Numbered from the stretch's first letter, positions 27,477 to 30,778 are shown. The stretch is DNA of 64,000 bases from an uncultured Alphaproteobacteria bacterium (GCA_934277945.1 CAKQWA010000006.1:12173-76172), one strand, 5' to 3'. Numbers and translations are program-made. The notes: generated by a model not told the origin, from the sequence alone.

Positions 27477-29900
27477 ATGACGATTTTCAACGATTTCCCC
27501 GTCTGTTTTCCCGATGGCAGATTCAACGAACTGTACGAACCGGACGGCGCGTTTCGTCAGGAGTGTATGCCGTTCGTCAAGGCGTGCGAAAACGAAAGCG
27601 CGGAAACAATCGCTTTTTACGCGCAACAGACCAACCGCCTTTTTTCCTCCGAACTGTCCATGGTGGCAAGCGACGGGCAGTCGCGGCTGACGCACGCTTT
27701 TTTGCCGTTCTTTTTAAGCGTCGGCGATTTTGAACTTTTGGAAAAGGGCTTGATTCAGCGCGCGCAGGTGCTGAACGCCGCGCTTTTGGATTTTTACGGC
27801 GAGCGCAATCTGATTAAAAAAGGCGTCATTCCCGCGCAAGTGCTGTTCGGTCACCGCAACTATCTGCCCGCGCTGAACGGGGTCATTCCGGACAACAAGA
27901 TTTTCTTAAAAGAGTACACGGTCGACGTCGAGCGCGCGCCGGACGGCAGATTCTGGGTCGTCGGCGAAAAAACGCAAATGCCGCTGAACATCGGCTTGAC
28001 GGTGGAAAACCGTCTGCTGTTGTCGCGCGTCATGCCGCAGATTTACGCGAAATCCGCCCCGAAGCGCATTTTGCCCGCCATGCAGTCGATTGCGCGGCAG
28101 TTGAAAAATCTTGCGCCCGACACCGCGCACCCGCGCATTGTGCTTTTGGTGCCTTCGACGCAGAAATCCGTCGGTTTTGAAAACGCGTTTCTGGCGCGCA
28201 ATCTGGGCATCAGCGTTTTGGAGCCGGCGGACTTGTCCGTGCGCGGCGACACGGTGTATTTAAAGAACATGGACGGTTTGAAAAAAGTCGACGTCATCCT
28301 GCGCTACATCGACGACCGTTTGTGCGATTCTTTGGAATTGGACGGATCGAGCGGCGCGGGCGTCGCCGGACTGACGCAGGCGGTGCGCGCGGGCAATGTC
28401 AAAATCGTCAATCCTTTGGGAAGCGGCGCAGCGGAAATCCCCGCCCTGAAAGCGTTCATCCACGGCATCGCGCGCTATTTCACCGGCGAAGACCTGATTT
28501 TGCCGAGCATCGCGGCGTGGTGGTGCGGACAGGAAAAAGAGGCGGATTACGTCGCGGCTCACCTGAACGAATTGCGTGTCTGCCGCGCGCTTGACGGACG
28601 GGAAGTGCAAATCACGCCCGAAAAACTGCGCGAATTTCCCGAACGCTACGTCGCTTTTGAAACCGTGCGCGCGTCCTGCACGCCCGTGTTTTACAAAGAC
28701 AAAATCCTGCCCGCGCAAGCCCGTCTGCGCCTCCATCTGATTTACGACGACGGCGGCTACAAGATGATGGCGGGCGGCACGGCGTTTTCCAAAATCCGCA
28801 AAGACACGCTGATTCAGGACGTCTGGATTTTGAACGGCAAGGAAAAAAACCGCGCGGACATCGCGTCCGTGACCGCCAAAAACGTCCGCCCCGTACGCTC
28901 GACGTTCGATTTGACGTCGCACACGGCGGAAAATATGTTCTGGCTGGGGCGGTATCTGGAACGAAGCGAGGACGTCTGCCGTCTGATGCGCGGGATTTTG
29001 CGCCGCGCCGTCGACAGTCCCGAACTGCCCGAACCGAACGACGAAGCGACACTGTTTCAGGCGCTCTGCTGGCTGGGCTACGTCCCGTTCGCCGATTACG
29101 CGAATCCGCAAGTGCAAAAGGACGGCTTGGACGCGGTTTTAAGGCTGGTGTGCGACAAAGACGAAGCGTTCGGACTGCCCGTTTTGTTCAATCAGATTAA
29201 AAATACGTCCGACCGTCTGCGCGACCGCTTGTCCGCGGATACTTGGGAGATTTTTTCGCAACTGCCCGATTTTCTGCCGAAAGGGGCGTGCGCGCCGCGC
29301 GTCGCTTTGAAAGGGCTGGACACGGTGGTGCTGCATCAAAACGCGTTAAGCGGGCTGATTCGCGAAAACATGACGCGGGAAATCAGTTGGCGGTTCATGG
29401 AAATCGGGCGGCGGCTGGAACGCGCGGTTCACGTTCTCGATTTAATAAACAGCATTGATTTGTGCGCCAAAAACGGCTTTGAAGCGGCGTTGGGGACGAT
29501 TTTGGAAGTGTCGGACAGCCGCATGACCTACCGGTCGCGCTATCTGGCGGATCCCGTTCTGCCGCTGGTGTTCGATTTGCTGATTTGCGACGAAACAAAC
29601 CCCCGCGCCGTCGTGTATCAGGTGCTGAAACTTAATCAGAACATCTGCAAAATCGCGGCGGAAAGCAGCGATTCCGGTCTGTTCGGCGCGCAAAAGGACA
29701 TTCTGGCGCAACTGCTGGCGGACATTCAAAGCATGACCGTCGCGTCCGGCGGCGACTCCTTGGACGGCAAAATCTTCGAGCAAGTCGCCGCCCTGCGTCA
29801 GAAAACAACCGAATTTTCGGACACGCTGACGCTGTCGTGCTTCGTGCACGCGGGACAGACGCGGCAAGGTCCGACCTATCATCAGGAAGAACGCAAATGA
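27477..29900 (+). CDS. Fusion of a circularly permuted ATP-grasp (type 2) domain and an alpha-E domain (amidoligase module).
   Basis: An N-terminal approx 480 aa circularly permuted ATP-grasp-like region is followed by an approx 320 aa alpha-helical alpha-E domain. The downstream transglutaminase gene overlaps by ATGA. Confidence 0.6.
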   Translation: MTIFNDFPVCFPDGRFNELYEPDGAFRQECMPFVKACENESAETIAFYAQQTNRLFSSELSMVASDGQSRLTHAFLPFFLSVGDFELLEKGLIQRAQVLNAALLDFYGERNLIKKGVIPAQVLFGHRNYLPALNGVIPDNKIFLKEYTVDVERAPDGRFWVVGEKTQMPLNIGLTVENRLLLSRVMPQIYAKSAPKRILPAMQSIARQLKNLAPDTAHPRIVLLVPSTQKSVGFENAFLARNLGISVLEPADLSVRGDTVYLKNMDGLKKVDVILRYIDDRLCDSLELDGSSGAGVAGLTQAVRAGNVKIVNPLGSGAAEIPALKAFIHGIARYFTGEDLILPSIAAWWCGQEKEADYVAAHLNELRVCRALDGREVQITPEKLREFPERYVAFETVRASCTPVFYKDKILPAQARLRLHLIYDDGGYKMMAGGTAFSKIRKDTLIQDVWILNGKEKNRADIASVTAKNVRPVRSTFDLTSHTAENMFWLGRYLERSEDVCRLMRGILRRAVDSPELPEPNDEATLFQALCWLGYVPFADYANPQVQKDGLDAVLRLVCDKDEAFGLPVLFNQIKNTSDRLRDRLSADTWEIFSQLPDFLPKGACAPRVALKGLDTVVLHQNALSGLIRENMTREISWRFMEIGRRLERAVHVLDLINSIDLCAKNGFEAALGTILEVSDSRMTYRSRYLADPVLPLVFDLLICDETNPRAVVYQVLKLNQNICKIAAESSDSGLFGAQKDILAQLLADIQSMTVASGGDSLDGKIFEQVAALRQKTTEFSDTLTLSCFVHAGQTRQGPTYHQEERK

Positions 29901-30778
29901 AATACTATGTGCGCCACATTTCCTCTTACGCCTACGAATTCCCCGTCACGCTGTCCGCGCACGTCGCCCGATTGAAGCCGCGCGAAACGCCGTATCAAAA
30001 AGTGTCGGACGTCAAATTGACAATCGACCCGCAAACCGACGCGGCGCGCGACGTGACGGACGCTTTCGGCAACACGATGACGCTGTTCACGGTGGAAAAA
30101 ACGCACGACGCTCTGACCGTGACTTCCGAATTTCACGCGCAGACGCGCGCGCCCGATTATCCGAATCCCGCCGGAACGCCCGCTTGGGAGGAAGTCGCGC
30201 AAATCCTGAAATTTCCGCAGACGGACGCTTTGCTTGAAGCGGCGCAGATGAGCGCGGAATCGTGCTTCATTCAAAAAACGGCGGCGGCGCGGGAATACGC
30301 CCTGCAATCGTTCGCGAAAAACCGTCCCGTTCTGGAAGCGGCGGAGGATTTGACGCACCGCATTTACGAGGATTTCCTGTACGACCCGACGGCGACCAGC
30401 GTCGCCACGCCCGTGGACGAAGTGCTGAAACTGCGGCGCGGCGTGTGTCAGGATTTCGCGCATCTCGCCATTGCCTGCCTGCGTTCGCTCGGTCTGGCGG
30501 CGCGCTACGTCAGCGGGTACATCCGCACGCACAAAGCCGACGATTCCGCCATGGTCGGCGGCGACGCGTCGCACGCGTGGTTTTCCGTGTTCGTCCCGTC
30601 GATTTGCGGCTGGGTCGACCTTGACCCGACAAACAATATGTACTTGGGCGAAGAACACGTCACAATCGGCTGGGGACGCGATTTCGACGACATGAGCCCC
30701 GTCAAAGGCGTGATGACAGGCGGCGGCAAACATTCGTTCAGCGTCGACGTTCTGGTCGCCCCGCAAAGTGACGACTAG
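29897..30778 (+). CDS. Transglutaminase-like cysteine protease (Bact_transglu_N + transglutaminase core).
   Basis: Catalytic triad context GVCQDFAHL (Cys), DASHAWF (His), DLDPTN (Asp). Confidence 0.7.
   Translation: MKYYVRHISSYAYEFPVTLSAHVARLKPRETPYQKVSDVKLTIDPQTDAARDVTDAFGNTMTLFTVEKTHDALTVTSEFHAQTRAPDYPNPAGTPAWEEVAQILKFPQTDALLEAAQMSAESCFIQKTAAAREYALQSFAKNRPVLEAAEDLTHRIYEDFLYDPTATSVATPVDEVLKLRRGVCQDFAHLAIACLRSLGLAARYVSGYIRTHKADDSAMVGGDASHAWFSVFVPSICGWVDLDPTNNMYLGEEHVTIGWGRDFDDMSPVKGVMTGGGKHSFSVDVLVAPQSDD

Follow-up and report, generated by a model that had tools for sequence, protein, structure and literature searches.

Which enzyme module is encoded at positions 27477 to 30778 of a 64,000-nucleotide stretch of DNA from an uncultured Alphaproteobacteria bacterium (GCA_934277945.1 CAKQWA010000006.1:12173-76172; the whole stretch is hereafter called the window), and has it anything to do with the flagellin and FlbT genes that follow it? 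A reading made earlier from the DNA alone (the sequence-only reading) had proposed an amidoligase-type module of the Iyer-Aravind kind, in which a fused circularly permuted ATP-grasp/Alpha-E protein is translationally coupled to a transglutaminase-like protein; it had treated the fusion as a distinguishing feature and had placed the pair next to a spermidine-synthase-like membrane protein and directly upstream of an orphan flagellin/FlbT pair. Here, we report domain, homology, synteny, and structure searches, from which we conclude that the locus is probably an ordinary two-gene amidoligase/transglutaminase module carrying out ligation on what is probably a small substrate, with flagellin and FlbT as mere neighbors.

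Domain content and gene coupling

The proposed extent and content of the module stood. An open reading frame (ORF) whose translation is 807 amino acids (aa) long is followed by one for a transglutaminase-like protein (ORF B), and the ATP-grasp, Alpha-E, and transglutaminase assignments are all supported by Pfam scores far over the curated cut-offs (Table 1). The 807-aa protein matched CP_ATPgrasp_2 (331 bits; E, 1e-98; cut-off, 32), CP_ATPgrasp_1 (243 bits; E, 4e-72; cut-off, 23.1), and Alpha-E (178 bits; E, 6e-52; cut-off, 20.8), and ORF B matched Bact_transglu_N (aa 3 to 81; 80 bits) and Transglut_core (aa 140 to 244; 74 bits), both above cut-off. With the three domain families present and a triad-bearing enzyme in the same operon, membership of the Iyer-Aravind module is borne out.

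Conserved residues were found in all three domains. The Alpha-E half carries ER-type motifs (YLERSE, aa 493 to 498; GRRLER, aa 644 to 649; NPR, aa 708 to 710), in which E495, R496, R645, R646, E648, and R649 are invariant in the family alignment. Fused homologues from many phyla align collinearly with the protein (query coverage, 96 to 100%), and 90 positions are conserved both in the window's clade and in a set of 84 distant fused proteins; among them are the ER motifs of Alpha-E and, in the core of ATP-grasp, most of the invariant Arg, Asp, Glu, and Asn residues. The Cys-His-Asp triad of ORF B is invariant in a 13-sequence alignment of ORF B and its orthologues. The AlphaFold2 model of the full 807-aa protein was confident (predicted local distance difference test [pLDDT], 84.5; predicted template modeling score [pTM], 0.78).

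The two genes share an ATGA start/stop overlap, as the sequence-only reading had it, with a Shine-Dalgarno-like AGGAAG upstream of the ATG at 29897; the 4-nucleotide overlap recurs in six other loci of the clade (L003 to L006, L089, and L091). Alignment with 12 orthologues favors this ATG (MKYYVRH) as the start of ORF B, and the GTG at 29837 given by a mechanical ORF list (313 aa) was rejected on that alignment. The 20 additional codons of the mechanical ORF (29837 to 29896) fall within the upstream fused gene. Read from the sequence, both the fused protein and ORF B are without signal peptides.

Table 1. Features of the two-gene module and its surroundings (window positions unless a locus is named)
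Feature	Position	Strand	Basis
Fused gene (N-terminal region, circularly permuted ATP-grasp domain, linker, Alpha-E domain)	27477-29900	+	ORF, translation, Pfam, alignment
Circularly permuted ATP-grasp domain, aa 77-434	27705-28778	+	Pfam, 3n6x match
Alpha-E domain, aa 479-785, all-helical	28911-29831	+	Pfam
ATGA start/stop overlap (translational coupling)	29897-29900	+	Direct sequence reading
Transglutaminase-like gene (ORF B), 293 aa	29897-30778	+	Pfam, alignment, PDB matches
Triad codons of ORF B: Cys184, His226, Asp243	30446-30448, 30572-30574, 30623-30625		Alignment
Palindrome TAGGCAA-AAA-TTGCCTA then CTAACATATTGAAAAA, beginning at the transglutaminase stop codon	30776-30808	+	Clade comparison
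Palindrome in other clade loci	L001 11319-11337; L003 7101-7119; L004 11350-11368; L005 11362-11380		
Palindrome in further clade loci	L007 6174-6192; L008 13384-13402		
Extended -10-like element TGATATCTT, upstream of the flagellin gene; TGnTAYnnT in clade loci	30843-30851	+	Intergenic comparison
Predicted divergent flagellin, 495 aa, large central insert	30888-32375	+	phmmer, NCBIfam
FlbT, flagellin translation regulator, 133 aa	32395-32796	+	Pfam E 9e-37, NCBIfam E 1e-40
Polytopic membrane protein, 698 aa, divergently transcribed	25284-27380	-	ORF; no Pfam family
Divergent promoter region between membrane-protein gene and fused gene, 96 bp	27381-27476		
AT-rich motif common to clade loci	~27418-27455		

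Distribution of the fused form

The fusion that had been taken to set the locus apart proved to be shared by all of the best matches. In a search of 5.8 billion proteins, the best 120 matches were inspected, and all were fused (769 to 903 aa), each carrying the three Pfam domains of the window protein. When the representatives of 50%-identity clusters (1.84 billion) were searched exhaustively with phmmer, 6,759 matched at an E value of ≤1e-3 and 1,355 at ≤1e-30, and the best 150 were again all fused (792 to 965 aa). Of the bacterial enzyme modules that still lack an assigned substrate, the ATP-grasp/Alpha-E/transglutaminase system ranks with the more widespread. At least 581 fused-gene stretches were confirmed in one-genome-per-species contigs. 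Such proteins come from Planctomycetota, Verrucomicrobiota, Acidobacteriota, Nitrospirales, Spirochaetales, Bacteroidota, and Alpha-, Beta-, Gamma-, and Deltaproteobacteria and already bear the names "circularly permuted type 2 ATP-grasp protein" or [quoted passage not shown] Fusion is thus the standard, populous architecture and no peculiarity of the window.

The downstream partner is equally regular. Of 78 distant loci, 73 have the fused gene followed immediately by a homologue of ORF B. In the commonest extended order, the fused ligase has the small transglutaminase downstream and, directly upstream, a transglutaminase of ~1,100 aa with additional C-terminal sequence; this large transglutaminase was found in 42 of the 54 distant loci that had sufficient upstream sequence. 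Split ATP-grasp (~480 aa) and Alpha-E (~330 aa) genes stand beside the fused gene in ~15 of the 78.

The window's clade

The nearest relatives of the fused protein (46 to 73% identity) are encoded in metagenome-assembled genomes of uncultured Alphaproteobacteria, probably of gut origin to judge from record names such as SGB_2063. They form a single 50%-identity cluster, beyond which phmmer scores drop from 814 to 449 bits. Ten independent loci of this clade were examined (the window, L001/2, L003 to L008, L089, and L091), and all 10 share one block, consisting of SNase, the membrane protein (opposite strand), the fused ligase, the transglutaminase, the flagellin-like gene, and flbT; the outer flanks vary.

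The large transglutaminase was absent from all clade loci examined, and tblastn of five such proteins against the window matched only ORF B. A fourth gene of the module in other systems, that of the proteasome-like Anbu, was likewise missing: there was no Pfam match to the Anbu/proteasome family among the ~45 further window ORFs scanned, and none was called in the clade loci.

The clade's fused proteins also differ in sequence. When 37 of them were compared with the 84 distant fused proteins (conserved positions being those with ≥90% identity among the distant set), 29 family-conserved positions carried other residues in the clade. The replacements include D17N, D74G, R165K, Y174L, E177K, Y233S, G250P, P329H, and R437F, with positions 48, 71, and 447 also affected, and charge is altered at several (E177K, R437F, and D74G). 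At position 177, E is retained by only the window protein and one other clade member. The clade's fused protein is further shortened in two places, in its N-terminal region and, by a deletion of 18 residues, after the ATP-grasp domain. As a pattern of residues, the 29 replacements may reflect a change of substrate. The locus defines a compact, reduced two-gene subfamily, lacking the large transglutaminase and Anbu and having a substitution pattern of its own and flagellin/FlbT as a fixed neighbor.

Flagellin, FlbT, and the intergenic spacer

The cassette does sit directly upstream of an orphan flagellin/FlbT pair, as claimed, with FlbT solid and the flagellin a predicted, divergent one. FlbT matched Pfam over profile positions 1 to 125 of 125 (126 bits; cut-off, 27) and the NCBIfam equivalog just below its cut-off (138.6 against 153 bits). 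An ORF overlapping it (32379 to 32747) was discarded as an arginine-rich artifact. The 495-aa ORF matched Flagellin_N at 21.1 bits (E, 3.5e-4), under the 26.6-bit Pfam cut-off, with no match to Flagellin_C; phmmer aligned it to annotated alphaproteobacterial flagellins through its N- and C-terminal helices (E, 1e-31 to 1e-26), and an NCBIfam flagellin subfamily matched its C-terminal part at 2e-32, under cut-off. By these alignments, we read it as a divergent flagellin whose central part contains a large insert.

No other flagellar gene was found among the further window ORFs scanned with Pfam, which are of housekeeping type (ATP synthase, aconitase, RF3, FtsK, AcrB, P-type ATPase, peptidase U32, and others), and tblastn with FlaF, FlgL, FlgK, FlgE, FliX, and FlgI of related Alphaproteobacteria found nothing in the 64-kb window; the pair is therefore locally orphan. 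Both genes adjoin the cassette in 10 of the 10 clade loci. Homologues of flagellin, FlbT, and the membrane protein were absent from the 78 distant loci, and in Alphaproteobacteria outside the clade, the genes for flagellin, FlbT, and FlaF belong to flagellar clusters that have no cassette nearby.

The spacer between the transglutaminase and flagellin genes is 109 bp long, and a scan for terminator-like sites found none in it. At its start is a palindrome with perfect 7-bp arms, kept at this junction in the clade as TAGGCAA-NNN-TTGCCTA followed by CTAAYATATTGAAAAA. It was located at the same junction in seven clade loci, and the exact motif occurs once in the window. The center triplet varies (AAA, AAT, or TTT), and one arm mismatch in L006 is uncompensated. 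The palindrome is possibly a regulator binding site or an RNA hairpin, with protein binding the better fit of the two; it may resemble FlbD binding sites. As a sigma-54 or sigma-28 promoter it was rejected by eye, the GG-to-GC spacing being 8 nucleotides rather than 10 and no -35 being conserved. Further along the spacer, the TGATATCTT element is a putative flagellin promoter.

In most clade loci (L003 to L008, L089, and L091), a gene for an ~510-aa pyridoxal-phosphate-dependent (PALP) enzyme follows flbT on the same strand (for example, L003 9284 to 10837). It is not at that position in the window or L001/2, and no homologue was found anywhere in the window.

Proposed function and alternatives

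Consistent with the sequence-only reading, which had called the biochemical role uncharacterized, no biochemical characterization of the family or assigned substrate was found in the literature searched. We infer the chemistry, the class of substrate, and the independence from flagellin as follows. By analogy with known ligases of the same fold, the ATP-grasp domain would activate a carboxylate with ATP as an acyl-phosphate and join it to an amine, giving an amide, peptide, or isopeptide bond. Alpha-E, to which it is fused, would be an obligatory partner, either binding substrate or acting as a scaffold, and the transglutaminase-like thiol enzyme would hydrolyze or transfer an amide bond of the product or of a precursor. 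Flagellin and FlbT would most likely be a separately promoted neighbor, held in place by lineage-specific synteny and outside the module.

For the ligase half, the weaker Foldseek matches (E, 6e-9 to 1e-4) were to eukaryotic-type glutathione synthetase, glutathionylspermidine/trypanothione synthetases, YgiC, and Cp1B, with glutathione and homoglutathione synthetases at ~1e-8 and the fungal E-64 ligase Cp1B at 4.5e-7. Cp1B joins an epoxysuccinate to an amino acid (PMC12568646). Because the characterized structural relatives of the ligase join small molecules, a small substrate (peptide-like, gamma-glutamyl-like, or polyamine-like) is likelier than a protein. Structure searches with the Alpha-E half gave no informative solved relative.

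Work on other members of the family bears on parts of this scheme. In the split Anbu operon of Yersinia bercovieri, ATP-grasp is a protein of its own, which was shown to release phosphate from ATP (PMC6376114); functional hypotheses for the ATP-grasp/Alpha-E/transglutaminase/Anbu operon are described as unconfirmed (PMC6376114; PMC5666114). In Mycobacterium tuberculosis, a 2026 preprint treats Rv2411c and Rv2567 as candidates only, both being negative for synthesis of gamma-aminobutyric acid (GABA)-trehalose. The Pfam description records that the family includes inactive members.

Four observations weigh against an ordinary module acting on a small substrate. The chemistry is argued by analogy for every member of the family; the clade has lost the large transglutaminase and replaced 29 conserved positions, which is compatible with a changed substrate; the cassette, flagellin, and FlbT stay together in all 10 clade loci though the outer flanks differ; and a spacer with no terminator-like site leaves cotranscription with flagellin possible. 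Each of the alternatives, too, has difficulties of its own.

A role under nitrogen limitation, with the module either producing or recycling a compound rich in amides or else liberating ammonia, is possible though doubtful as an account of this locus; it is a physiological proposal and is compatible with the chemistry set out above. It draws on the dependence of a split cassette with large transglutaminase on NtrC and sigma-54 in Burkholderia cenocepacia (PMC5491218), on the induction of PP_2685 and PP_2688 in Pseudomonas putida on a poor nitrogen source (PMC8050072), and on the covariation of the module's domains with urea-metabolism domains in marine metagenomes (PMC3597751). Those data, however, come from split, Anbu-linked, or large-transglutaminase-linked versions and not from the reduced two-gene clade. 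No sigma-54-type GG-N10-GC promoter was seen by eye in the 96 bp upstream of the fused gene, and no nitrogen-metabolism genes adjoin the pair in the window.

The ligase might instead add a peptide or amino acid tag to proteins, in the manner of pupylation or RimK, with the transglutaminase-fold enzyme removing or processing the tag. Transglutaminase-fold enzymes often act on protein side chains, which counts in favor of tagging. ORF B may also have a mycobacterial homologue in Rv2569c. That protein, of the COG1305/YebA superfamily, is reported to cleave proteins in vitro (PMC11081392). Tagging is, moreover, the contextual hypothesis published for the ATP-grasp/Alpha-E/transglutaminase(/Anbu) operon, as summarized in PMC6376114 and PMC5666114. 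We nevertheless regard it as unlikely here, since the structural neighbors of the ligase are small-molecule ligases and the ORFs scanned in the window include no Anbu or proteasome-like gene. In the Yersinia operon, moreover, pull-downs gave no stable complex among the proteins and no Anbu peptidase activity was detected (PMC6376114).

Gene order raises a third possibility, that the two enzymes target the neighboring flagellin prior to its export, or else FlbT, through ATP-dependent addition of an amino acid or peptide or through isopeptide cross-linking or trimming. The order fused gene-transglutaminase-flagellin-flbT is kept in 10 of the 10 clade loci at 46 to 73% identity while the flanks have been rearranged; the flagellin/FlbT pair stands apart from other flagellar genes and lacks the usual FlaF; the subfamily has its 29 changed positions and has lost the large transglutaminase; the spacer shows no terminator-like site; and neither enzyme has a signal peptide, so both would meet flagellin in the cytoplasm. 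Set against this, the association is restricted to one lineage, in which the SNase and membrane-protein genes are also syntenic, so phylogenetic inertia explains the flagellin adjacency equally well. None of the 78 distant cassettes is linked to flagellar genes, the flagellin gene has its own conserved promoter-like element with a palindrome upstream, and the ligase's structural relatives all act on small molecules. We know of no precedent for flagellin modification by an ATP-grasp or transglutaminase enzyme.

The flagellin linkage is thus clade-wide yet lineage-specific, and present evidence does not separate functional coupling from inherited synteny, the former seeming to us improbable. It is correspondingly a long shot that a reduced, sequence-shifted module was recruited in this clade to modify an atypical flagellin or to act in an FlbT-controlled flagellin circuit. 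Such a recruitment, if true, would supply the family's first physiological substrate, add a new type to the post-translational modifications of flagellin, and make the clade a good starting point for the biochemistry of the family as a whole; if flagellin is not the substrate, the locus is another correctly annotated member.

That the module is catalytically dead or purely structural is highly improbable: replacement of 29 family-conserved positions, charged residues among them, and loss of the partner large transglutaminase speak for it, but 90 conserved positions are kept (including most ATP-grasp core Arg, Asp, Glu, and Asn residues and all ER motifs), the transglutaminase triad is intact, and the clade has maintained the two genes in close coupling throughout.

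No known anti-phage defense system was recognized: at an E value of ≤0.01, PADLOC models matched none of the four proteins compared with them (fused protein, transglutaminase, membrane protein, and flagellin). An ordinary amidoligase/transglutaminase module, with its flagellin neighbor outside it, remains the interpretation that we favor.

Membrane-protein neighbor and the rest of the window

The description of the divergently transcribed neighbor as spermidine-synthase-like did not survive. Its match to the NCBIfam polyamine aminopropyltransferase model, which concerns the C-terminal domain, was 13.9 bits (E, 0.02) against a cut-off of 304 bits; Pfam gave no match at an E value of ≤1 and the PDB no sequence match better than an E value of 0.8. 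Orthologues in the clade range from 203 to 743 aa, most being 203 to 266 aa long and corresponding to aa 218 to 460 of the window protein. The long form with an extra C-terminal soluble domain (GxSTG and DILIAD motifs) was seen in only the window, L001/2, and L003. With nothing significant in Pfam, NCBIfam, or PDB and the C-terminal region missing from the short orthologues that make up most of the clade, the spermidine-synthase identity was rejected.

The region between this gene and the fused gene contains an AT-rich motif common to the clade loci (ATTTTA.ACG..TTTT...TTTTGTC.TA.AAAA). An Rfam scan of the window found one tRNA only (58434 to 58505) and nothing near the locus.

Elsewhere in the window, five long ORFs had no Pfam family at an E value of ≤1e-4: 2929 to 6015 (+; 1,028 aa), 40564 to 42249 (-; 561 aa), 46341 to 47714 (+; 457 aa), 1553 to 2824 (-; 423 aa), and 52457 to 53692 (+; 411 aa). 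A Fic-domain protein with a fused C-terminal MerR-type helix-turn-helix (12796 to 13779, -) adjoins a 730-aa ClpB-like double-AAA ATPase (10597 to 12789, -). Genes for a serine recombinase (resolvase; 50042 to 50713, -) and an AadA-like nucleotidyltransferase (42671 to 43639, -) hint at a small mobile or acquired segment in a housekeeping region.

Comparison with known systems

Local gene order downstream of the module has a counterpart in the alphaproteobacterial flagellin-FlbT-FlaF cluster (L087 and L088), where flagellin is likewise followed by flbT and FlbT is 46 to 49% identical to that of the window. There, however, the two lie inside a flagellar cluster with FlaF, FlgL, FlgK, and FlgE, none of which is present in the 64 kb.

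Among solved structures, the closest to the ligase half is PDB 3n6x (Mfla_0391 of Methylobacillus flagellatus, a structural genomics target named "putative glutathionylspermidine synthase"), with a sequence E value of 3e-44 over aa 72 to 419, a Foldseek E value of 1e-27, and a TM-score of 0.81 normalized to the target. Unlike the window protein, it is a stand-alone protein of 474 aa with no Alpha-E domain. Glutathione synthetase, glutathionylspermidine and trypanothione synthetases, Escherichia coli YgiC, and Cp1B have the same circularly permuted ATP-grasp fold and are carboxylate-amine ligases that work via an acyl-phosphate. At 9 to 13% identity to the window protein, with no Alpha-E domain and no transglutaminase partner, they offer a mechanistic likeness and not family membership.

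The counterparts of ORF B are 3isr (a transglutaminase-like putative cysteine protease of Cytophaga hutchinsonii) and TgpA of Pseudomonas aeruginosa (6g49), which have the same transglutaminase core and Cys-His-Asp triad. The likeness in the sequence search of the PDB is weak (E, 1e-8 and 1e-5, respectively), and TgpA differs in being a periplasmic domain that belongs to a membrane protein; ORF B lacks a signal peptide.

The split operon (Yersinia bercovieri and Pseudomonas Anbu operons), as described in papers that cite Iyer et al. 2009 (PMC6376114; PMC5666114), has the same domain families and the same predicted logic of a ligase with a thiol enzyme. There, ATP-grasp and Alpha-E are separate and Anbu is usually the fourth gene, whereas in the window they are fused and no Anbu was detected; Anbu in fourth place is a frequent, nonobligatory feature of the Iyer-Aravind system.

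Closest in kind are the fused "circularly permuted type 2 ATP-grasp protein" loci (for example, L009 to L086), which have the same three Pfam domains in the same order as the window. The distant fused proteins are collinear with the window protein over 90 to 100% of its length at 30 to 36% identity, and a transglutaminase of ~290 aa lies directly downstream as in the window (41 to 50% identity). They differ in usually having the large upstream transglutaminase and, in ~15 of 78, split genes as well, neither of which the window's clade has. Judging by its predicted domains, the locus has what defines the Iyer-Aravind module and also the fused subtype; Anbu and the large transglutaminase, both common accessories, are absent. 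It adds no new architecture to what is a widespread, already catalogued module.

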